From IMG/VR virus record IMGVR_UViG_3300022594_000001: a stretch of 64,000 nucleotides of DNA. The stretch is one strand, 5' to 3'. Positions 7,948 through 41,460 of the stretch are shown piece by piece. A program made the position numbers and the translations under genes. The DNA comes from a virus. Taxonomy: Duplodnaviria > Caudoviricetes. The notes beneath the pieces are model-generated. The model did no database searches. It was not told the origin of the DNA and was given only the letters and a program-made list of their open reading frames with translations. The stretch's first letter is position 1, and the number at the start of each line of letters is the position of its first letter.

Positions 7948-8639
7948 TGAATTTAACTGGAACTACATCTTTTACTTGTCAGTATTGTAATCACAAATTT
8001 ACTAAAGAAAAAACTTTAGCAGTGCATGTTTGTGAGCAAAAACGAAGAGCACTTGCACGTACAGAAAGGCATGTAGTACTAGGATATGACACCTATAATA
8101 AATTTTATAAACTCACTCAAAACTCCAAAGGTGACAAAAGTTATGACGATTTTGCTCGAAGTCCTTACTATAATGCTTTTGTTAAGTTTGGTAGCTTTGT
8201 TAGCAATGTCAATCCCTTATATCCAGATAGATTCATTCACTATGTTATTACTTCTGGGGTCAAGTTAGATCATTGGTGTCGAGACGAATTGTACGACAAG
8301 TATGTTGTAGATTTAGTTAAAACTGAAACAGTAGAAACTGCTCTCGAACGCAGTATTAAACATATGATGGATTGGGGAGAAGCAAACAATGCTCCGTGGA
8401 ACCATTATTTCTTATATGTTAGTTTAAGTCGAGCAACGTATGATATTAAAGATGGCAAGATTAGTCCTTGGTTTTTATTAAACTCTAGTAACGGAAAATC
8501 ACTACTGAAGAAATTGAACGATGAACAACTCAGTGCAATAAACAGCATTATGGATGTACCATTCTGGTTTAACAAATTTAAAAAACTTCCAGCTGATGTT
8601 GAACTTGTTAAACAAGTTGTCAAGGAGAGTAATATATAA
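7944..8639 (+). CDS. C2H2-like zinc-finger protein
   Basis: CQYCNHKFTKEKTLAVHVC at N-terminus. Confidence 0.7.
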   Translation: MMNLTGTTSFTCQYCNHKFTKEKTLAVHVCEQKRRALARTERHVVLGYDTYNKFYKLTQNSKGDKSYDDFARSPYYNAFVKFGSFVSNVNPLYPDRFIHYVITSGVKLDHWCRDELYDKYVVDLVKTETVETALERSIKHMMDWGEANNAPWNHYFLYVSLSRATYDIKDGKISPWFLLNSSNGKSLLKKLNDEQLSAINSIMDVPFWFNKFKKLPADVELVKQVVKESNI

Positions 8640-25078: not shown

Positions 25079-25222
25079 CTTGCGCTCCTAGTAGTTGCAC
25101 TGCCCGTTGCAGTATTACAAGTATAACACCTTTTGTTAGTTGTGCAAAAGTCGTTTGTTGTATTTGTGCAACATGTGTTAGCCATACGCTAGTTGTTCAC
25201 GTTATACCTCGGGGCAGCAGTT

Positions 25223-25353
25223 AGCCCCAATGGGCAAAAGTAAACAGCAGCGTTGCGCAGCATTGGGGCTAAACCCCAATGAGCGCAGCTAACACATTGT
25301 CATTGGGGCTCAGCGTTAGCCCCTGGGTGCATTCTGCAGTAGTCTCTGTGGCT
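25223..25353. repeat. three tandem AGCCCC/GGGGCT cassettes
   Basis: Spacers 36, 27, 24 nt; TTAGCCCCAATG/CATTGGGGCTAA 12-bp arms. Confidence 0.8.
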
Positions 25354-25371
25354 TATACGTCGTGCAGAGTC

Positions 25372-25400
25372 AAAAAAAACCCGGAGTATTAGTCCGGGCT
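25372..25400 (-). terminator. terminator
   Basis: CCCGGA..TCCGGG then T8 on minus strand. Confidence 0.7.
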
Positions 25401-25438
25401 GTAAAAGTTGCCTTAGCGCAACTAGGAGGGTAAACTTG

Positions 25439-25615
25439 TTATGCTTCGCCTTCTATGCGTAGCATTATTAATCCTGCAAACATCAAGCAACAGCCGCCTA
25501 GGCTAACGAAGAAACTACCAAACACTTGCCAGTTGTTTAGTGCTGTCTCTACCCCGCCTACGCCACCAAATGCAATCAATAAACCTAGTAACAATACTGC
25601 TCCGCCTTTAGTCAT
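25439..25615 (-). CDS. small membrane protein (58 aa)
   Basis: AAGGAG RBS; two hydrophobic segments; below ORF-track cutoff. Confidence 0.7.
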   Translation of the reverse strand: MTKGGAVLLLGLLIAFGGVGGVETALNNWQVFGSFFVSLGGCCLMFAGLIMLRIEGEA

Positions 25616-25616
25616 A

Positions 25617-25778
25617 TCAAACTCCTTGTGGTGTTGTTAAAATAATTGTACGCTTAAACACACGCTCGTCAATGTCTATTAGCCTACTACGTCTAATAGC
25701 CTGCTTGCGACTAGGCGCCCAAATTTCTACGCAAACTGTACGACTAGCAAGTGCAATGGCAATAGTGTATTTGTTCAT
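25617..25778 (-). CDS. small basic protein (53 aa), leaderless
   Basis: TTGCAC-16-TATACT then 6 nt to ATG. Confidence 0.55.
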   Translation of the reverse strand: MNKYTIAIALASRTVCVEIWAPSRKQAIRRSRLIDIDERVFKRTIILTTPQGV

Positions 25779-25884
25779 GTAGCTAGTATACAGTCATTTT
25801 GAGCGTGTGCAACAATTATTTTTGTCTGTTGTAAAGTCACACGCCGCTGCGGTAGTTGCAGATTGGGCAGCTGGGGCTATGCTA

Positions 25885-25931
25885 CGCCCCACGGAGGCGA
25901 TTTCGCATTCAAGATTTCACCAGGTGGGGCT
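25885..25931. repeat. CGCCCC-N35-GGGGCT cassette
   Basis: GCCCCAC..GTGGGGC arms; extra GGGGCT at 25873. Confidence 0.75.
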
Positions 25932-25940
25932 AGCTTAGTT

Positions 25941-25969
25941 AAAAAAATAGCGTAGCCGTGCTACGCTAT
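25941..25969 (-). terminator. terminator
   Basis: ATAGCGTAGC-ACG-GCTACGCTAT then T tract on minus strand. Confidence 0.8.
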
Positions 25970-25982
25970 GCAATTGCTGCTG

Positions 25983-26591
25983 TTAAACAGTAAGGCTTTG
26001 CTTTTGTGCGTTAAGCTGTACAATGCTGTCTAGCGCAATTGTGCGCACTTGCACTGTATGCAGTACGTCGTGCGTTTTGTTATGCACTACATTTGTCCCC
26101 GCTAGTAAGTCCTTTGCTGCGCTAGCTGTTAGCAAGGCTGCTACTTGTTGCTTAGTTGCTAGCGTGTTGTCAATAAACAACAAGCTATTAGCTGTGTTGT
26201 AAATTGCAAACAAATAAAACTTAGTTGCGTCTGTTTTGTGTTGCACTAAACTAAAAGTACTAGTGTGTGCAAAGTAATTGTCTTGCTGCTCAAACCCCGC
26301 AACGTTTTGTGCAGCATTATCTGCAATTTGTGCGGCTGTGCGCTTAACTGCTGCTGCGTAAACGTTTTTAAAATCGTTAACGTTGTTAAAAAGCTGTATG
26401 CTAGCTTGTGTAACTTTTTGCACGTTAACTGCTTTGTGCGCTGCTGCTGTTTTTACTTGCGTAACTTGCAGTACGCTTGCTAGTGTTATGCCGCGCACGT
26501 TTTGCAGTAGTTGCGCTACTTGCTGTGCGGTAATTGTGTTGTTGTTTGCACGTTGTTGCAATGCTTGCTGTGCTGTTGCTAGTGTTAACAT
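25983..26591 (-). CDS. early hypothetical protein (TC-free coding strand)
   Basis: GGAGCG RBS, GGTGTTATAGT -10, terminator; 202 aa with no P/W/C. Confidence 0.85.
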   Translation of the reverse strand: MLTLATAQQALQQRANNNTITAQQVAQLLQNVRGITLASVLQVTQVKTAAAHKAVNVQKVTQASIQLFNNVNDFKNVYAAAVKRTAAQIADNAAQNVAGFEQQDNYFAHTSTFSLVQHKTDATKFYLFAIYNTANSLLFIDNTLATKQQVAALLTASAAKDLLAGTNVVHNKTHDVLHTVQVRTIALDSIVQLNAQKQSLTV

Positions 26592-26743
26592 TTTGCGCTC
26601 CTAGTTGTTGCTGTGCTTTATTGCACGTAGTAACTATAACACCATTTTTGCGTTTGTGCGCATTTTTTTTAAATTATTTTTGTTGTATTTGCGCAACACG
26701 CATAGCCGTGCAGCAATAAAGTTGATGAATTTATTAAGGTTCC

Positions 26744-26901
26744 GGGGCTGTGCATAGCCCCACAGGGGACCTCTAAGATATCAGATCGATCGCTGCGGGG
26801 CTAACCACACGTTAGAAACCTAGGCGAAGAAAATCAATTTGCGGGGCTAGCTACGCCCCAGTCTCAGCAGCGGCTGCGTAGCAGAAATTCAGAGTGGGGC
26901 G
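26744..26901. repeat. cassette cluster in divergent promoter region
   Basis: Units 26756/26797 (35 nt) and 26854/26896 (36 nt); extra GGGGCT at 26744 and 26843. Confidence 0.8.
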
Positions 26902-26942
26902 GATCCCCGGAGGCAATGTTGAAGTAACCTCCGCGGCAGTTG

Positions 26943-26970
26943 TTGACAGGTGTGCTTTTGGTGTTATACT
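26943..26970 (+). promoter_or_regulatory. early promoter
   Basis: TTGACA-16-TATACT with TTTTGGTGT extended -10, a motif shared with promoters at about 25120, 26635, 32340, 33375, 33790, 47215. Confidence 0.8.
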
Positions 26971-27000
26971 ATGAGTGTTATTAACTAACTAGGAGCGTGT

Positions 27001-27264
27001 ATGTACTGGGTTAAAACAGAAGTAAGCAGTTTTGAAGACGGACGCAAGTTGCTAGCCACATGCGAAACACTTGATGCTGCGATACAAGAGTGTGCGGAGT
27101 GGGCAGAATATGACGATGTGCGTGTTTGGGTAGAAGATCAACATGGCGGAATCGTTCACGAGTTTGAAGGTTACGCAGATGCGGTGGAGTTCTTGTATCC
27201 TGAAGAAGACGACGGACAACCTACAGAGTTAGAAGAATGGATGGACTTTGATCCAGATTGTTAA
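27001..27264 (+). CDS. small acidic early protein
   Basis: 26/87 D+E; C-terminal DDGQPTELEEWMDFDPDC; GGAGCG RBS. Confidence 0.85.
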   Translation: MYWVKTEVSSFEDGRKLLATCETLDAAIQECAEWAEYDDVRVWVEDQHGGIVHEFEGYADAVEFLYPEEDDGQPTELEEWMDFDPDC

Positions 27265-27283
27265 TACAATCTAACTAATCTAC

Positions 27284-27307
27284 AAGCAGGATTCGTCCTG
27301 CTTTTTT
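27284..27307 (+). terminator. terminator
   Basis: AAGCAGGA-TTCG-TCCTGCTT then T tract. Confidence 0.85.
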
Positions 27308-27639
27308 ATTTGTCACAAAGAGCCCCAAGTAGTTCTCTGCTGTAGTTCGCAGCAGTTTGGGGCTCTAGTCTTTTATTCTCCTAAAAGTCTCCGGATTCTC
27401 CAAAGCCCCACGGGAGCGCACATGATGAATTCATCTTTGTCGTTCGGGGCTATAGACGTAAGTTGTTGATTTATATAGACCGGTATTCTTAGCCCCGGAT
27501 CTGAATTCAGATGAATTCATCATCGCATCGGTGGGGCTAGGCGGTTTCCTGCAATCTATAATCTACTAAACAGCGGGGCCAGCCCCACCTACAGTGTGCG
27601 ACGCATACTTAGATTCTTGAGGCTCTGTGCAAAAAGATG

Positions 27640-27667
27640 TTGACAAGATCTAATTTTCTTTTACAAT
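27640..27667 (+). promoter_or_regulatory. orphan sigma70-type promoter
   Basis: TTGACA-16-TACAAT, no ORF downstream. Confidence 0.55.
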
Positions 27668-27780
27668 ACACATATGCAGTAGCGAAGCTCTGACTATAAT
27701 TTCTTTAGCCCCACTTACTACACATGCTGCTGCCCATGGGGCTCTGCGTAATACTAGTGAAAGCCATGACTAAAGTTTTC

Positions 27781-27845
27781 TTGACAGCAGCTTTTTTGCG
27801 TGTAAAGTTAGCAATACAGCAGCAATGCATAGATCTTTAAAAATT
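27781..27845 (+). promoter_or_regulatory. orphan promoter followed by boxA-like element
   Basis: TTGACA-16-TAAAGT then GATCTTTAAAAATT. Confidence 0.45.
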
Positions 27846-28061
27846 CATACAGAGGTAATTTTTGATGCTCAATCGGCTCGAGTGGGGCTTTAGACTAGCC
27901 TCGTTTGCAGCCACGTGGTCACATGCAGCAGGGTGGGGCTGTAGCCGTACGCAGGATATCGTTGAATAAATTCAACCTGCCCGGGGCTGTTAGTAAGTGC
28001 TTACTAACTTAGTAGCCGTGCGTTTTGGTTTATGGTTTCGATCATTCAGAGACGGGGTTGA

Positions 28062-28136
28062 TGGTCCGCCCTCCAGGAATCGAACCTGGATCCACAGCTT
28101 AGAAGGCTGCTGCACTGTCCATTGTGCTAAGGGCAG
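28062..28136 (-). tRNA. tRNA-Arg (UCU)
   Basis: Full cloverleaf, CT-TCT-AA loop, TTCGATT, encoded CCA. Confidence 0.95.
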
Positions 28137-28137
28137 A

Positions 28138-28212
28138 TGGTGGGCCAACTAGGAATTGAACCTAGACTCAATCGATTATGAGTCGACTGCTTTACCATTA
28201 AGCTATTGGCCC
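28138..28212 (-). tRNA. tRNA with CAU anticodon, probably Ile2 (lysidine type)
   Basis: Cloverleaf, GACTCATAATC arm as in ileX-type tRNAs, G1-C72 pair, encoded CCA. Confidence 0.9.
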
Positions 28213-28218
28213 AGGTTC

Positions 28219-28470
28219 TTATAGCTCGTAGGGCATTAACCCATCGTCTATCAAGTCTTCAATACGGTCTTCACGTTCTACATACTCAGCTTCTAAGTCG
28301 TCTGGCTTCATGTTGTTGTACTGTATGAAACCATTACCCTGTATGATATCAGCAAGGAAGTCGTAACTCCCCTCGTCGATATTCGTGAGTATTGTTCGGA
28401 TATCTTGCGCAGTCAAGCGTTCAATTACCTGCTCGCGTGTTAAGTCCTTGTAGAACTTAGTCGTTGCCAT
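28219..28470 (-). CDS. acidic hypothetical protein
   Basis: 83-aa ORF upstream of tRNAs. Confidence 0.75.
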   Translation of the reverse strand: MATTKFYKDLTREQVIERLTAQDIRTILTNIDEGSYDFLADIIQGNGFIQYNNMKPDDLEAEYVEREDRIEDLIDDGLMPYEL

Positions 28471-28648
28471 TTGTCGTGCTTTCGGATTCGTTTAATAGAT
28501 CTGCAATGCGTACTGCAATCTGTTCTGCTTCGTGCTCATTGTCACGTGCAATAATACACAGGACTCGCCCAGGAGGAGTACTCTTAAAGTCGCGAACTAC
28601 AACTCTGTTAGGTGTGTAGTCCTCGCTGAGCGAATATCCGTACCGCAT
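28457..28648 (-). CDS. hypothetical protein
   Basis: 63-aa ORF, coupled overlaps. Confidence 0.6.
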   Translation of the reverse strand: MRYGYSLSEDYTPNRVVVRDFKSTPPGRVLCIIARDNEHEAEQIAVRIADLLNESESTTNGND

Positions 28649-28956
28649 TAGGCTGCTGCTGTTGCCTTAGAGGCCACCACAGCGGGGCCTTTAGCCTTGC
28701 TAGCCTTAGGTGCCTTCTCTTCGAGATACTCTGCAATTGCTGCCTGTGCTGCTGCATCCTGATACTCGTCCATAGTCTGGATTGCCTTGACTGCTTCGTA
28801 CTTGGGCATTGGTGTGTCAAGCTCACACAAGCGAACGTCTTCGTGACCGTGCTTGTCTAGTACTTTAATTCGCATGATGTCTGTTGCGAATCGGACTTTA
28901 TACTCACCGTCGAGTTTACTTACGCCTACTACATTGAATAGTTTATCTGTTGCCAT
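28648..28956 (-). CDS. hypothetical protein with Ala/Lys-rich tail
   Basis: AGGAAGG RBS; TTGACG-17-TATAAT at 29045-29017. Confidence 0.8.
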   Translation of the reverse strand: MATDKLFNVVGVSKLDGEYKVRFATDIMRIKVLDKHGHEDVRLCELDTPMPKYEAVKAIQTMDEYQDAAAQAAIAEYLEEKAPKASKAKGPAVVASKATAAA

Positions 28957-28980
28957 AATATGCCTTCCTAATAAATTAAT

Positions 28981-29271
28981 TTAAATTGCCTTCGTCCGTT
29001 TTTTTGGACTTGCCTTATTATACAATCGTTTGGCAGCAACGTCAACCTTTTTAGGTATCTTTTGGCTGAACTCGCGATCGATATAATACTCTACGAGCAT
29101 ATTCTTAATCATAATAGTTAAGTCATAGCCCACATCATCTGGGCAGATAAAGCGTACAGGACACTTACCCCACCCTTGATATTCTAGGAACTCAGCGTAC
29201 CATTTGCGGTGATCTTTGTTACGTGGATCGAATGCAACTAAAGGTCGAGCGAAGTATTCTAGTTTGCTCAT
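28981..29271 (-). CDS. hypothetical protein
   Basis: 96-aa ORF, WGKCPVRF. Confidence 0.75.
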   Translation of the reverse strand: MSKLEYFARPLVAFDPRNKDHRKWYAEFLEYQGWGKCPVRFICPDDVGYDLTIMIKNMLVEYYIDREFSQKIPKKVDVAAKRLYNKASPKKRTKAI

Positions 29272-29486
29272 AAGTATTTTTGTAAAACCTCGTTAGCTAA
29301 GTTAGTATCTTGAATCGTATCGAGCATGGCCCACACCATTAAATTCATAACCGTACGGGCTTCTCGTTGTTGATCCTCCGGCAGAGTTGCAATGAAGCTC
29401 ATTACATCATCTGTTGTGTCTAGGCCCCACATAACATCTGCTAGGGCCCGTTGGCGTTTCGTTAGACCATCAATCAAAATATCCAT
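29268..29486 (-). CDS. hypothetical protein
   Basis: MDILIDGLTKRQ, coupled to neighbours. Confidence 0.7.
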   Translation of the reverse strand: MDILIDGLTKRQRALADVMWGLDTTDDVMSFIATLPEDQQREARTVMNLMVWAMLDTIQDTNLANEVLQKYL

Positions 29487-29631
29487 CGTCACGCCCCTTA
29501 TGTTTAGGTCGACGTTGATACGTACCTTTCTTTGGCTCTTCCTTCTTTGGCCAGAACGGAGAGTCATCTTGGAAAAGTACACGATGAGCGCGAGTCTTTT
29601 TGCGCTGTGGAACTTGTTTCAAATGCATCAT
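29470..29631 (-). CDS. ArfA-like ribosome-rescue factor candidate (53 aa)
   Basis: SPFWPKKEEPKKGTYQRRPKHKG resembles the ArfA core; TTGACT-17-TATAAT upstream. Confidence 0.45.
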   Translation of the reverse strand: MMHLKQVPQRKKTRAHRVLFQDDSPFWPKKEEPKKGTYQRRPKHKGRDDGYFD

Positions 29632-29672
29632 GTTAGTATATATCCAACGTCGTTCAAAATTGTATTATACAC

Positions 29673-29825
29673 TCAAAGCAAGCGATAGTCAAGTGGGCTA
29701 TTGTGATAGGCAGCTTGTAGTTCAAACTGATCTACACCGTATGCTTGAACAGTGTCTATGACTGCTTGTACGTAATCGCATCCCAACAACATAAGTTGTT
29801 TCATGTGTGCTACTGCTTGGTTCAT
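29673..29825 (-). CDS. small hypothetical protein
   Basis: GGAGCGCGAA RBS, TTGACC-16-TATAAT. Confidence 0.7.
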   Translation of the reverse strand: MNQAVAHMKQLMLLGCDYVQAVIDTVQAYGVDQFELQAAYHNSPLDYRLL

Positions 29826-29897
29826 TTCGCGCTCCTTTTTGTTAAACAATGTGTATATTATACAGCCAAAATCCAAAAGGTCAACCAAAATATTTCT

Positions 29898-29933
29898 AGC
29901 CCCACAGGCTTATTCAAGGCAATCTGTGGGGCT
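29898..29933. repeat. AGCCCC-N24-GGGGCT cassette
   Basis: TAGCCCCACAG/CTGTGGGGCTA 11-bp arms. Confidence 0.85.
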
Positions 29934-29942
29934 ACTCTAGCC

Positions 29943-30035
29943 AAAAAAAAGCCCTAGCATACCGGGAGCGAATCGGGTTTATAGCTAGGGCTTACCACTA
30001 CTAAGGGCTTACCGGGAGCGAATCGTTGGGCCCTT
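29943..30035 (-). ncRNA. tandem-hairpin 3'-UTR RNA/terminator with anti-RBS loops
   Basis: Two stems each enclosing CGAUUCGCUCCCGGUA; second ends in U8. Confidence 0.6.
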
Positions 30036-30054
30036 TACCACACATGTTGCGATC

Positions 30055-30957
30055 TTAGTGTCGCATACACGTTACCTGGGCAGTAGCTTGCCAGTTGCTA
30101 GGCAAACTCTTGCGCAAATCTGCTACCTTAAGAACCATACGCAAAGACAACTCTCGCATCTTGTTCTTATTTAGATCGATAAAGTCTACGATCTCTTGCT
30201 TCTGAGCATCATCAAACTCGTATACATCAAGCATGCCGTCGCCTACAATTTGCTTGATACGCAGCATTTTTTCACGGGTTGTATCTATAGTCAAGTCCAG
30301 GTAGTGACAACGCGACTCTAGGGCTTCTAAGTGATCACGCAGCTTACGCGATTTAACGTGATCGAACTTGATGTTTGTGATAAAGATTGCCCCACCCGCA
30401 AACTCGAACGAGTTGGGTACGGCTTCGTCTTTGAGCGCACGTGAGTCCGTGTTCCAACAAATGACTCGTTTCTTGCTGCTGTCTAAGGCTGCTTTAAGAA
30501 TGTTCAGCGACAAGTCGTCAAGCAGGACGCTATCGCAGTCATCGAAGACAAGGATGCATTTACGATCCTTATACTCATAGAGTTTTTTGTACAGACCCAA
30601 GGCACTCATAGCCCCTTTGACAATCTCGTACTTCTTGAGCTTTGAGTCATTGGCTACGTCTGCGAATACGTCGTGTTTCGATAACACTGTTTCAACACCA
30701 TAGCTCTTGCCAACCCCGGGCGGGCCTGAGACAATCATAGCCCGAACGTGTCCGGCTTTACATGCTCGAGTCATGTCGTCTAAGATGCTAAACCTCGCTC
30801 GTAGACGCTCGATAATCTCGGCATCAGTCTCATGGCTAAGGTCCTTGTCAACTGCTTCGAGTTCAAGACTTCTTACTTCTACTTTAGAAGGCTTGGTGGC
30901 ATTTGCCTGCGTTTCTAAAGCGTTAACCATTTCTAATGTCCATACCTTTCCAACCAT
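30055..30957 (-). CDS. AAA+ family ATPase
   Basis: GPPGVGKS, LVFDDCD, FITN, ALESRC. Confidence 0.85.
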   Translation of the reverse strand: MVGKVWTLEMVNALETQANATKPSKVEVRSLELEAVDKDLSHETDAEIIERLRARFSILDDMTRACKAGHVRAMIVSGPPGVGKSYGVETVLSKHDVFADVANDSKLKKYEIVKGAMSALGLYKKLYEYKDRKCILVFDDCDSVLLDDLSLNILKAALDSSKKRVICWNTDSRALKDEAVPNSFEFAGGAIFITNIKFDHVKSRKLRDHLEALESRCHYLDLTIDTTREKMLRIKQIVGDGMLDVYEFDDAQKQEIVDFIDLNKNKMRELSLRMVLKVADLRKSLPSNWQATAQVTCMRH

Positions 30958-31021
30958 AGTCGCTCCTATAATTATTAATGTAATCCGCTATTATAACAAG
31001 GGCCGAAGCCCTTGTCAAGTT

Positions 31022-31453
31022 TTACCACGAGCTGTGATACTCAAAATCCCAACCCTGTGGAAACTCTTCTAGGATTCGGGCAATGGCTTCTTCGGTTTCA
31101 CGCAAGTCTGCCCAATACCATTCGTCCACTTGATCCGAACCAAAGAAGAAGCCTGATGTTGGAGGCAGCTTACTAGCATCTTTGGTGTCAAGCACTTCTA
31201 GGATCAGCTGTCGCAGGATCTCTAGTTGATCACGCCCGACATAGTAGTTGCCGCAGTCGTCTGTACCGCCCTGCACGTTATCCACAAACCATTTATGGAT
31301 TTGGTTGCTCTTTCGCCAATACATTGCCTCAGCAATAATCTCTTTGACTCGCTTGCCTTCGAGTTCGGGCAAAGCTTCTGCTACCTTTTCGCCAATTTCG
31401 TTTTCGTTGTGCCAAAGAAAACGTTTGGCATTCAAATACATATCAAGTCCCAT
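31022..31453 (-). CDS. early hypothetical protein
   Basis: MGLDMYL, YWRKSNQIHKWF, GFFFGS; GGAGCGAA RBS. Confidence 0.85.
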   Translation of the reverse strand: MGLDMYLNAKRFLWHNENEIGEKVAEALPELEGKRVKEIIAEAMYWRKSNQIHKWFVDNVQGGTDDCGNYYVGRDQLEILRQLILEVLDTKDASKLPPTSGFFFGSDQVDEWYWADLRETEEAIARILEEFPQGWDFEYHSSW

Positions 31454-31518
31454 GTTTCGCTCCTAGGTTAAAGTTGAATTCGTGTGGGCTCTCTCGTTGG
31501 CCCACCCACGTTACTTCA

Positions 31519-31914
31519 TCAGCCTTCCACGCACTGATAATCTTTGTCCCACGCACCAATGCTCAAGTGTGTGTAGAATGCGGTGTCAAAGTAGTCTGTC
31601 ATCGCATCGCTGCGATCGTAATACTTACGACTAGGATTAGCACGACCGGGCGCATTGTGCATGATCTCATTGATCTTTTCAAGCACCATTTGCTCTTCTT
31701 TGTCTGTCCAGTGATCTTTGATCCAGTAAGTGTTAACCTGCACATGACGACGCCCGCCTGTCATGTTCTCGTCAAAGCTGCAGGTACCTTTCAGAATCGT
31801 TACGTCTACGCTAAGGCTACCTGAGCCTTTACGAACGCTAAACTTCCATTTTGGAAAATTAGCTTTGAGTTCTGCACGGATTGCTGACACGTCGTCTGCT
31901 GTAATATATGCCAT
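31519..31914 (-). CDS. LPD29-like domain protein
   Basis: IRAELKANFPKWKFSVR..DAMTDYFD; GGAGCGAA RBS. Confidence 0.6.
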   Translation of the reverse strand: MAYITADDVSAIRAELKANFPKWKFSVRKGSGSLSVDVTILKGTCSFDENMTGGRRHVQVNTYWIKDHWTDKEEQMVLEKINEIMHNAPGRANPSRKYYDRSDAMTDYFDTAFYTHLSIGAWDKDYQCVEG

Positions 31915-31949
31915 TTGGTTCGCTCCAATTGCTGTTGTTGAAGTGTTAA

Positions 31950-32294
31950 TTATACAGTCAGTTCGCCGAATTTAGCTTCCCAACTGGAAATAAATTTAGC
32001 GCCTACATCCAACGAGACGTAGTCGTCGCCTTGCATGCCTTGCTCGCTGTATTCAACGTCAAGTGCAAGGTTATGCTCAATCAAAAAGTGAGTCAAGTCA
32101 CGCAAGAACTGCTTGTCTGTGTAGATCAAACCTGAGTCCTCTGTGTTCCATGTATCTGTGTTAAAGTATACACGCAGTTCGCCAAAGTCTTTCTCCTCAT
32201 TGCAGTAGCCGATCTTCATGTTAGTGATCTCTACAGCTTTGATGTCGCCTGACCAGTAGCCAGTTCCGCTTGTGTTGAAAATTACCTTTTGCAT
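31950..32294 (-). CDS. early hypothetical protein
   Basis: GELRVYFNTDTW, GLIYTD, YSEQGMQG; GGAGCGAA RBS. Confidence 0.85.
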   Translation of the reverse strand: MQKVIFNTSGTGYWSGDIKAVEITNMKIGYCNEEKDFGELRVYFNTDTWNTEDSGLIYTDKQFLRDLTHFLIEHNLALDVEYSEQGMQGDDYVSLDVGAKFISSWEAKFGELTV

Positions 32295-32400
32295 GTTTCG
32301 CTCCATGTGTGTTGCTGCACTATCGCAGTATCATAACTATAACACCAAAAAAGCCAAAATCAAAATTATTTTATCAGTAGTTTCACTAATGTTGTATTTG

Positions 32401-32436
32401 AGCCCCACACTATCGATCAAAACCAAACGTGGGGCT
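32401..32436. repeat. AGCCCC-N24-GGGGCT cassette
   Basis: AGCCCCAC/GTGGGGCT. Confidence 0.85.
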
Positions 32437-32447
32437 AACAAGTCCAC

Positions 32448-32472
32448 AAAAAAAGGGCCCTAAAGCCCTTTC
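32448..32472 (-). terminator. terminator
   Basis: AAAGGGC..GCCCTTT then T tract on minus strand. Confidence 0.75.
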
Positions 32473-32479
32473 AGAATGA

Positions 32480-32608
32480 TCAGTTATCTAGTTCGTACTT
32501 GACCCAGTCTGTCATTTCGTGTACTAACAGATCTGCGTCTGAATCGTACAAGTCATCAAGCTCTTCTAACAGATCTAACTCTTCGTCTTCTGTCATGATG
32601 TTTACCAT
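32480..32608 (-). CDS. very acidic 42-aa protein
   Basis: MVNIMTEDEELDLLEELDDLYDSDAD..; AAGGAG RBS; 16/42 D+E. Confidence 0.7.
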   Translation of the reverse strand: MVNIMTEDEELDLLEELDDLYDSDADLLVHEMTDWVKYELDN

Positions 32609-32640
32609 TTTTTGCTCCTTTGTGGTTAATGGTAGTCAAA

Positions 32641-33339
32641 TTATACAGTCTCTTTGATACGAATAACGAAGCCACTGTAATCTTTTTTGGCACGATGCCC
32701 TTTTACTTTAAGGCCCATCATGCCCACTTTTGGGTCTAAGAAGCGCAAGTCTGTCTCGTCCGCGCTATACATGCCCTTAGGAATCTCATCGTAGACAGCG
32801 GCTACATTCATGCCCGCCTTAAGCGCCTTCTTGACATCTGCATCGTTTGACTCAGCACGGCTGAATGTCAAGTGATAGTTCTTAGGCAAGTTCTTGCGTC
32901 CCAGAACCTTAGTGTAGTCATAGAACTGTACTTCAGGAAAGAGCTCAAACAAGTTAAGTCCAGTCTCGCCCACTTCATACTTTTCCCACGAAAGATCGCT
33001 AGTGCCATTCAAACGGAACACGGGCACCAAGTTCTTCTTCTCGGAGTAATTAATAGCCTTTTGAATGTCCTCTGCTAGCTTGAACATGAACGCAGGACGA
33101 TCTGCAAAGAACTCACGTGTCTTGCGAATACGTGCCTGCTGGATGGTGTTAGTACCGCCATCTTTGAACATACCACCGCGTCCCGCAAGGTTAAGGCATG
33201 CTGCGATACAACCTGCTGTGGCTTTAGGGCATACATTCTTGCCCGACAAGTCGTATGGTGCAAGATGTAGAATCCAAGTTAGATAGCCCTTCTTTTGGCC
33301 CTTGATAGTCTTAGGGTTTCCCTTTGTTAAGTAATGCAT
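32641..33339 (-). CDS. GP88-like protein
   Basis: CPKATAGCIAAC, FRLNGTSDL, FYDYTK; GGAGCGAA RBS. Confidence 0.7.
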   Translation of the reverse strand: MHYLTKGNPKTIKGQKKGYLTWILHLAPYDLSGKNVCPKATAGCIAACLNLAGRGGMFKDGGTNTIQQARIRKTREFFADRPAFMFKLAEDIQKAINYSEKKNLVPVFRLNGTSDLSWEKYEVGETGLNLFELFPEVQFYDYTKVLGRKNLPKNYHLTFSRAESNDADVKKALKAGMNVAAVYDEIPKGMYSADETDLRFLDPKVGMMGLKVKGHRAKKDYSGFVIRIKETV

Positions 33340-33404
33340 AGTTTCGCTCCTATGTGTGTTAAGTTAGAACTAGTATAGCACCAAAAAGATGCTGGTCAAC
33401 CAAT

Positions 33405-33758
33405 TTATATAAAAATTTTACGATTAGTCAAATAAGCCTGCTCTGCTGTGAAGATAGGCTGCTCACCATCTGCATAGACAAAGGTAGAATACTTGTAGGG
33501 ATTGTAAGTTACCGCGATATCGCTAGTGTCACGAATCACTGTATCTACTGCCCCGAACCATTGCCCAACAACACCTGCATGGACATTCTTCTTCTGCTCA
33601 CGTAGAACACGAGCACGACCCGCCTGACTTACACGAAACTGAACATTGTGCAGAGTCACTTCGCTAGCATGTTCAATGACTAGCCCTTTATGTGATCCTT
33701 CAAGCGCCTTGATTGAAAAGACCCGTTTGTGCAAATTATAGTAGACAAATACTCGCAT
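33405..33758 (-). CDS. early hypothetical protein
   Basis: VYYNLHKRVFSI, KKNVHAGVVG, YNPYK; GGAGCGAA RBS. Confidence 0.85.
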   Translation of the reverse strand: MRVFVYYNLHKRVFSIKALEGSHKGLVIEHASEVTLHNVQFRVSQAGRARVLREQKKNVHAGVVGQWFGAVDTVIRDTSDIAVTYNPYKYSTFVYADGEQPIFTAEQAYLTNRKIFI

Positions 33759-33854
33759 GGTTCGCTCCTAGTTAGTATGTCATAAGTATAGCACCAAAAT
33801 ACCAAGAGCAAGAGAAATTTTGCCAGTATTTTCCATGAGTTGCCAAAAAACAAC

Positions 33855-34033
33855 AGTCCCACATGAATCTAGTGCTGCCAATCAATATCATCATGTGGGG
33901 CTAAAGTCAGCCCCAGACTACAGTCAGCAGCAGAGTTTAGATTCCTGGGGCTAAGAACCCCACACTAGACTAGTGATCGATTAATCTGCCCGGGGCGGGG
34001 CTAAAAGAATGGAAACGAGTTTGGTTCAGCCCC
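33855..34033. repeat. three tandem cassettes plus trailing AGCCCC
   Basis: Spacers 36, 32, 35 nt. Confidence 0.85.
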
Positions 34034-34051: not shown

Positions 34052-34100
34052 TTATCCACAGGTTATCCACAGTTGTAATCTAGCCACAGAGTTATCCACA
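34052..34100 (+). promoter_or_regulatory. three perfect DnaA boxes
   Basis: TTATCCACA at 34052, 34063, 34092. Confidence 0.8.
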
Positions 34101-34166
34101 GTGGCGAAAAAGCCACGTTGTATTCTCGCAACAGTGGCGAAAAAACAACAGTGGCAAAAATACAAC
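34072..34166. repeat. five GTKG-N8-CMAC palindromic units
   Basis: At 34072, 34101, 34117, 34134, 34151. Confidence 0.8.
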
Positions 34167-41034: not shown

Positions 41035-41239
41035 AAAGGATTATTGGACTCCTATTGTAGACTACTACTACGATCACGTACATTGGGCAGAAGAAAACCC
41101 GCCGAGTATTTACGGATGGCTTAAACGAGAGTATAATGCACATTCGAGCCTAACAAATCCCTGCATACATTTTGATCACGAAAAGGACTACATGTGGTTT
41201 ATGCTGCGCTGGAGTGAACAATGCGAGAAATCAATTTAG
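41021..41239 (+). CDS. FxLRW-family protein
   Basis: WFMLRWS. Confidence 0.75.
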   Translation: MKILKKDYWTPIVDYYYDHVHWAEENPPSIYGWLKREYNAHSSLTNPCIHFDHEKDYMWFMLRWSEQCEKSI

Positions 41240-41460
41240 AAGATACAAGATTCTATCAACTCCTTAACAAAATGTACAAGGAGTTTAATCCCGACGAAAG
41301 CTCAGATCAAGTCATTCCTTTTGCGGACCACGTAAGGCACAAGTATGGTATCTACATTAACATTCGTCCTAACACTGAACGTGGCGAAGGCTATGAATTA
41401 ACTCGTGTGTTTGTAGAAAACGAAGCTAGATATAATTGGCTAATAATGGAGTGGACATGA
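41221..41460 (+). CDS. FxLRW-family protein (divergent)
   Basis: YNWLIMEWT. Confidence 0.65.
   Translation: MREINLEDTRFYQLLNKMYKEFNPDESSDQVIPFADHVRHKYGIYINIRPNTERGEGYELTRVFVENEARYNWLIMEWT

Follow-up and report, generated by a model that had tools for sequence, protein, structure and literature searches.

Tagged early ribosome sites and complementary hairpin loops behind an AAA-ATPase gene in uncultured giant phages

The early region of an uncultured giant phage, analyzed here in a 64,000-nucleotide (nt) stretch of its DNA (IMG/VR record IMGVR_UViG_3300022594_000001; the window), contains ribosome sites tagged with the word GGAGCG(AA) and, directly past the stop codon of an AAA-ATPase gene, two copies on the transcribed strand of UUCGCUCC, the exact complement of the full-length tag GGAGCGAA. 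Judged by its sequence, GGAGCG(AA) consists of GGAG, a short Shine-Dalgarno core, and a private 3′ extension, and the reader of this tag is most likely an antisense RNA and not a nuclease. We infer the pairing of tag and loop from their complementarity and covariation, and we propose, with a probability of roughly 0.6, that the hairpin RNA from the ATPase message's 3′ untranslated region (3′UTR) pairs with the tagged ribosome sites and lowers early translation. Among related uncultured phages, well over 100 contigs keep the tag on their early genes.

Tagged ribosome sites of the early region

Motifs were searched for by counting k-mers in the segments that precede start codons. All ten sites claimed by the first-pass annotation of this DNA were present, with GGAGCG located 5–8 nt upstream of ten ATG codons between 25,078 and 33,758. 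Nine of the tagged ATGs are on the minus strand (33758, 33339, 32294, 31914, 31453, 30957, 29825, 26591, and 25078) and one is on the plus strand (27001). Five of the ten tags read GGAGCGAA (minus-strand ATGs 33758, 33339, 32294, 31914, and 31453), while the bare GGAGCG is found before ATGs 30957, 29825, 26591, and 25078 on the minus strand and 27001 on the plus strand. The distance from the end of the 8-mer tag to the AUG is 1–4 nt. The bare word GGAGCG is not enriched in the window (16 copies vs. 11.7 expected); for GGAGCGAA there were 7 copies vs. 0.78 expected on both strands, a number reached in 0 of 100 shuffles. Two of these copies, on the plus strand at 29965 and 30015, do not belong to ribosome sites; on the minus strand they correspond to UUCGCUCC in the hairpin loops described below.

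To count GGAG-type starts, we required GGAG, a start codon and an open reading frame (ORF) of at least 40 aa, which gave 42 such sites in the window. GGAGCG was present at 10 of the 13 sites within 25.0–33.8 kb vs. 0 of the 29 outside (Fisher p = 1.9e-7), the latter reading GGAGA, GGAGT, or GGAGCA. The earlier remark that the motif was not seen at starts outside 25–34 kb was thus borne out for GGAG-type starts of the window.

The full-length tag GGAGCGAA occupies, on the minus strand, the ribosome sites of a 117-aa gene with a Pfam Phage_L5_gp82 domain (33761–33768, ATG 33758; predicted loop duplex of –13.1 kcal/mol), a 232-aa gene with Pfam GP88 (33343–33350, ATG 33339), a 114-aa gene (32297–32304, ATG 32294), a 131-aa gene with Pfam LPD29 (31919–31926, ATG 31914), and a 143-aa gene (31456–31463, ATG 31453). 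The AAA-ATPase gene itself carries GGAGCGAC on the same strand (30959–30966, ATG 30957; loop duplex of –12.3 kcal/mol). Further minus-strand tags are GGAGCGCG at 29828–29835 (50-aa gene, ATG 29825) and GGAGCGCA at both 26594–26601 (202-aa gene, ATG 26591) and 25081–25088 (121-aa gene, ATG 25078), and the plus-strand tag is GGAGCGTG at 26992–26999 (87-aa gene, ATG 27001). For the gene at 32294 the mechanical ORF call begins at an ATG within the leader (32306); it is plausible that the tagged ATG 32294 is the true start.

Sigma-70-like promoter sites were detected just upstream of most tagged genes, seven by the promoter scan and that of 33758 by eye, and an extended –10 TG is present at five of the promoter-like sites. 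They include a perfect TTGACA-17-TATAAT before the AAA-ATPase gene (31018–30990, minus), and TTGACC-16-TATACT before the gene at 33339 (33399–33372, minus), TTGACC-16-TATAAT before that at 29825 (29884–29857, minus), and TTGACA-16-TATACT before that at 27001 (26943–26970, plus). Such a placement would fit early genes read by the host polymerase. Two small genes outside the early region, on the plus strand, have the ribosome sites GGAGUGAA (41211–41221) and GGAGUGGA (41448–41457), which could pair with the anti-tag loop via G.U pairs (–11.0 and –10.5 kcal/mol, respectively).

Hairpins behind the AAA-ATPase gene and their conservation

The AAA-ATPase gene (300 aa, 30055–30957, minus; phrog_1250, PF00004) resembles T4 NrdC.10 and a protein of phage PA5oct. 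Two hairpins (29943–30035, minus) begin 20 nt past its stop codon, in the 3′UTR and terminator. Hairpin 1 (30003–30035) is built of the stem AAGGGC/GCCCUU and the loop CCAACGAUUCGCUCCCGGUAA, with the anti-tag UUCGCUCC at 30015–30022. Hairpin 2 (29943–29993) has the stem AAGCCCUAGC/GCUAGGGCUU and carries the anti-tag in its loop at 29965–29972; because eight U's come right after, we assign it as the intrinsic terminator of the ATPase message. Both loops share CGAUUCGCUCCCGGUA. Ensemble computation gave an unpaired probability of 97% for the loop of hairpin 1 and 94% for that of hairpin 2, while the tags were 37–75% unpaired.

For each of the 223 ORF starts of the window, the duplex of its leader with the 9-nt loop was scored. 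Nine tagged genes ranked within the eleven best, with duplex energies between –10.2 and –13.3 kcal/mol vs. a mean of –4.0 over ORF starts. The tenth tagged gene (32294) is absent from the ranking, since it was scored from the upstream ATG 32306.

When IMG/VR was scanned with the 16-nt loop word, at least 120 stretches matched, which by our rough estimate is about the chance level for a 14-base word in such a collection, and part of the matches are coding or chance matches. Among the matches listed, about 80 distinct copies form hairpins in which the same loop sits on unrelated stems, often in twos or threes with a terminator as the final copy; the terminator-type copies listed (26 distinct) likewise have unrelated stems. 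In 25 distinct copies of hairpin 1, compensatory changes were found at 7 of 7 stem pairs and 96% of cells were paired, vs. 22–33% in slid controls. Hairpin 1 of the window was matched by the covariance model with 55 bits (E = 3.5e-12). The inner 2-bp stem covaries as well, from CG..CG to UG..CA or GG..CC, and this paired change of the two flanking bases defines an apical loop of 9 nt, AUUCGCUCC.

As the invariance of the loop in the set collected by loop word arises by construction, we re-sampled the loci with the ATPase protein as the sole criterion. In 70 of the 74 loci picked in this way, the 14-nt loop word CGATTCGCTCCCGG, with up to 3 substitutions allowed, was found at most 400 nt from the ATPase stop, and the central TCGCTCC was retained in 66 of the 70. 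The relatives have 1–5 hairpins at the 3′ end of the ATPase gene; the largest A-type array seen (see below for the types) is that of L164 (1393–1700), in which five successive hairpins with loops AAUCGCUCC or UUCGCUCC follow the gene.

Tag and hairpin occur together in these phages. In hairpin-bearing loci about half of the GGAG-type ribosome sites on the hairpin strand are GGAGCG, mostly GGAGCGAA, and just 2 GGAGCG ribosome sites were counted in the approximately 45 loci without a real hairpin, i.e., those with chance or coding matches to the loop word. In a relative with a complete genome of 400 kb we counted 17 GGAGCG sites, of which 8 fall within the 40 kb surrounding the ATPase gene, and a single anti-tag cluster, 3′ of that gene.

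Rfam 15 yielded no match to the hairpins at E ≤ 10 within 29800–30200; in the window it returned two tRNAs and one weak isrJ match beside the hairpins, and nothing else. An identity of the loop word with a tRNA T-arm was considered and rejected, as the flanks form no T-stem and the copies are 41–50 nt apart in several loci. In the literature on the motif or on phage anti-Shine-Dalgarno small RNAs, we found no description of this system.

Genes for helicases, for a DnaB-type helicase and for two tRNAs are present in the window besides many small genes without functional annotation, and most of the early proteins have no known function by Pfam- and PHROG-type annotation. Among cultured phages, PA5oct of Pseudomonas comes nearest by its ATPase and DnaB proteins (50–55% protein identity); a search of a phage collection with the window at the DNA level gave no match, and neither tag nor anti-tag was found in the ATPase region of PA5oct. 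Likewise, the tag/hairpin system was not found in L002 and L003 (ATPase identity of 61%), and the remoter ATPase loci (49–61% identity) showed no clear tag and no clear hairpin.

Matched tag and loop pairs in sister lineages

Three states of the tag and its loop were distinguished among the relatives, all occupying the same place in the genome, 3′ of the ATPase gene. In the A state the tag GGAGCGA(A) is accompanied by the loop UUCGCUCC. In the A2 state, seen in L288, eleven leaders read GGAGCAA(A), i.e., TAGGAGCAA(A), and five loops contain UUGCUCC, including AUUUGCUCC; the L288 loop CCGAUUUGCUCCCGG differs from that of the window by a single base, which restores the pairing with GGAGCAAA. In the B state (L202, L204, L242, L248, L253, and many others), (G)AGGGCA(A) leaders are found together with UGCCCU(C) in 2–5 loops. 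A screen of L234, L243, L225, L216, L239, L246, and L328 for further tag/loop pairs gave only B-type or unmatched cases.

In a sample of 179 non-identical ATPase loci, the class of the ribosome site and that of the loop agreed as A/A in 47, B/B in 34, and A2/A2 in 1, vs. 1 locus with A/B and 0 with B/A. Loci with loop A contained 345 GGAGCG and 8 B-type leaders in a total of 1605 ORFs, while those with loop B contained 10 GGAGCG and 238 B-type leaders in a total of 878 ORFs. Nineteen loci have A-type leaders and no hairpin at ≤300 nt of the ATPase gene, and at least 8 of these have the hairpin 600–800 nt further. The ATPase gene's own ribosome site bears the class-matching tag in 113 of 132 loci. 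In a complete B-type genome, one strong anti-tag cluster was located 3′ of the ATPase gene, and the 40 kb around it hold 14 of the 18 tagged starts. The first-pass annotation had suggested that the motif is a regulon tag; this suggestion is strengthened by conservation of the tag far beyond the window and by a complementary partner that changes with the tag between lineages.

The independent changes that we could count are A to B, A to A2, and small changes of the inner stem. As there is only one independent A/B pair on the ATPase tree, we make no statistical claim from phylogenetic contrasts; our argument draws on three states with exact complementarity and on many sites that changed in concert, and not on many independent switches.

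Two leader arrangements were observed besides. In L204 (e.g., 8020–8057 and 8280–8318) GGGCAA occurs twice per leader, one copy being part of the ribosome site and the other lying close to the 5′ end predicted for the message, with the layout atagGGCAAAC...GAGGGCAA, so that one message may present two sites to the UGCCCU loops. L205, L286, and L287 (G005, 220–240 kb) share a near-identical 27-nt leader, acactaacacaacGGAGAAACaaaATG, before 11 genes.

Predicted early control and alternative explanations

The extension gives the ribosome sites of a set of early genes 6–8 bases of complementarity to the 9-nt apical loops. We propose that the hairpin RNA, made at the end of the early ATPase message, is a stable 3′UTR fragment that builds up with early transcription. 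Its loops would pair with the ribosome sites that bear the tag, the ATPase gene's own among them, and this pairing would beat the 4-bp contact with the ribosome and reduce translation of the tagged early genes, while messages without the tag, whether of phage or host, would be unaffected. RNA pairing over a Shine-Dalgarno sequence located 1–4 nt from the AUG normally blocks initiation. Since the hairpin RNA would cover precisely such sites, repression would be the default outcome, and early shut-off is plausible. From the sequences we infer an encounter and pairing of the RNAs in the cell, a build-up of the 3′ fragment, and repression as the result.

Several points weigh against this proposal. 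Two loops face ten or more sites, which raises a question of stoichiometry, and repression requires that the 3′ fragment outlives the messages, which we assume. For five of the ten tags of the window the loop match is only 6–7 bases long, and the early region also contains genes without the tag (the cluster at 28.2–29.6 kb, 32608, and 25615). The A/B switch amounts to about one event on the ATPase tree, and the covariation therefore relies on few independent changes. Some relatives do not follow the matched states: GCCCUC loops are combined with GGAGAYC leaders in L246, UCGCUCC loops occur with mainly GGAGCA leaders in L201, and in L249 the pairing needs a bulged A. In the L205 clade a conserved leader, GGAGAAAC, is present on 11 genes, and a search of the 259-kb contig of this clade for the corresponding anti-tag found none; either this leader is a cassette without an anti-tag, or its partner is located in the portion of the genome that is not covered (completeness of 73% as estimated by CheckV).

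The pairing may be real and its outcome other than shut-off, namely protection of the messages, an action on the ATPase operon in cis only, or exclusion of co-infecting relatives with the same tag. We regard such an outcome as fairly unlikely. All the pairing evidence fits it equally well, tagging of the ATPase site in most loci agrees with an autoregulatory core, and tags vary between sister lineages in the manner of immunity specificities; the position of the pairing, across the Shine-Dalgarno sequence and next to the AUG, speaks for blocked initiation, and a purely cis role is too narrow for ten or more tagged genes with their own promoters. A bolder form of the exclusion idea, which we hold to be improbable, is that tag and anti-tag constitute an orthogonal, lineage-private translation code between giant phages, in which the resident hairpin RNA would silence the early genes of a superinfecting relative with the same tag. 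Were this so, a joint switch of tag and loop (GGAGCGAA, GGAGCAAA, GAGGGCA) would be the way of escape for a lineage, and virulent phages would possess an RNA-based hetero-immunity evolving like the P1/P7 c4 specificities, over a whole early regulon.

Three other explanations do without a pairing RNA. There is little chance that the motif is just an inherited remnant of a duplicated promoter-leader cassette with no reader. Leaders do have CA-rich sequence upstream of the tag in common, and L001 and the L205 clade, the latter lacking an anti-tag in the contig mentioned above, copy leader cassettes of 25–30 nt before many genes, so that for these phages the explanation is true in part. Outside the tag, however, the leaders of the window are only weakly similar, and a cassette explains neither the invariant complementary loop in a covarying hairpin nor the three lineage-specific tag/loop pairs. 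We give still poorer odds to a protein that reads the tag (a RegB-like nuclease, a RegA-like repressor, or a ribosomal protein variant), with the loops unrelated or secondary. Most early proteins here have no known function, which leaves room for such a reader, and there is a precedent in T4, whose early messages are marked at the Shine-Dalgarno GGAG for coordinated inactivation by RegB with S1 (PMC1702504). The RegB/S1 site is an 11-nt single-stranded sequence with GGA at its 5′ end and an A-rich 3′ part (PMC1702504). The window tags, in which GGA is followed by a GCGAAAC-like sequence, are partly A-rich, but the sister-clade tag (G)AGGGCA(A) contains no GGA, which RegB needs. None of five large relatives, three of them 96–100% complete, matched the RegB family (Pfam PF10715), a weak negative as the control genomes were silent too. 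The analogy to T4 RegB drawn in the first-pass annotation found no support: the T4 reader is a nuclease that acts with S1 on GGA and an A-rich stretch, while here a CGAA or GCAA extension is met by a complementary RNA, and loops that change with the tag are not what a protein reader predicts.

The remaining explanation, that the host 16S tail is complementary to GGAGCG(AA), e.g., by ending in ...GAUUCGCUCC..., and that the tag is an ordinary strong Shine-Dalgarno sequence, has next to no chance of being correct. GGAG pairs with CUCC of the 16S 3′ tail, and this core is present 5–8 nt before each tagged ATG; the CG or CGAA extension finds no partner in the canonical tail GAUCACCUCC, which may not be that of the host. 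We therefore scanned 185,579 species for the tail pattern ACCTGCGGYTGGAT[N]CGCTCC, i.e., GGAT[N]CGCTCC. With T at N there were 0 matches, and with any base at N there were 7, all in coding DNA and none in a 16S gene. Hence no 16S tail complementary to GGAGCG is known among these species, in agreement with the earlier view that the CG(AA) extension is superfluous for ribosome binding. Moreover, other genes of the same phage use GGAGA and GGAGT, and close relatives use other tags.

Compared with known systems, the predicted antisense element is nearest in architecture to the cuckoo/CcsR small RNAs of Alphaproteobacteria, which consist of 2–4 adjacent hairpins made from a 3′UTR, with highly variable stems and an identical, C-rich, anti-Shine-Dalgarno-like loop motif (PMC4615179, PMC8034643). 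Similarly, the window has two hairpins and the relatives 1–5, with covarying stems and identical loops. The cuckoo/CcsR loop is CCUCCUCCC, the upstream gene is DUF1127 (ccaF) and the targets are ordinary ribosome sites; here the loop is AUUCGCUCC, or UGCCCUC in the sister clade, the upstream gene encodes an AAA-ATPase, and the element is phage-borne, with targets that carry a private lineage-specific tag. Because loop motif, upstream gene, and host differ, we do not consider it a member of that family. OppZ/CarZ of Vibrio cholerae is a small RNA from an operon 3′ end, terminator included, that pairs with its own transcript and inhibits translation in a negative feedback (PMC7398697). The hairpins of the window share this position, terminator included, which is also that of the loop word in 70 of the 74 ATPase-picked loci, and the predicted pairing with the start of their own operon, given the ATPase site GGAGCGAC and its class-matching counterparts; self-tagging of the ATPase gene would fit feedback of the OppZ/CarZ type. 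They differ in that ten or more further genes with separate promoters are tagged and that the seed lies in hairpin loops, in two or more copies. Small RNAs of the OppZ/CarZ type are set free by RNase E and work together with Hfq.

The loops of c4 RNA of phages P1 and P7 pair with sites overlapping a ribosome site, and between the two phages loop and target have changed in a matched way. The Rfam C4 model gave no match in the window at the gathering threshold, nor at E ≤ 10 in 29800–30200. Transcribed from the immI region in the same operon as its targets, c4 is a phage antisense RNA needed for full repression of ant (PMC8198154). The antisense logic is thus alike and phage-encoded in both cases, but c4 lies upstream of a single target operon and serves lysogenic immunity, while here a 3′UTR/terminator element of a large, probably virulent phage would act on many targets. 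What would be new is that a private, lineage-specific extension of the ribosome site lets one small RNA address a phage early regulon and leaves other messages untouched.

If the predicted pairing works, a large group of abundant uncultured giant phages of freshwater and marine origin times its early program by RNA feedback, with neither a protein repressor nor a nuclease, by means of an address label on early ribosome sites and of a matching label-reader with which an early message ends. The conservation of a non-canonical Shine-Dalgarno extension would then be accounted for, and phage biology would gain a widespread RNA family that is in no catalog. It would also constitute a natural orthogonal pair of ribosome-binding site and anti-site; as lineages carry different pairs, these are ready-made for compensatory swaps and for synthetic gene control.

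Other features of the early region were noted. On the minus strand, about 750 nt at 27300–28060 are free of ORFs and rich in GGGGCU, following tRNA-Met(CAT) and tRNA-Arg(TCT) at 28062–28212; one further CGCUCCCG word at 27413–27418 was not resolved into a hairpin. Just upstream of the first tagged gene (34052–34160, minus), three DnaA-box words, TGTGGATAA, occur within 50 nt beside the repeated TTTTCGCCACTGT. The DnaA box has 5 copies in the window vs. 0.70 expected, similar ctgtggataa clusters are present in the relative L202, and the segment is a candidate replication origin or DnaA-titrating site. Finally, the word TAGCCCCA or its complement was found in 13 copies vs. 1.27 expected, 12 of the 13 in the early region (25.2–34.0 kb), and several of them form intergenic inverted repeats of the type AGCCCCAC-N(~20)-GTGGGGCT, e.g., at 29897–29934, 32400–32437, and 33896–33953.

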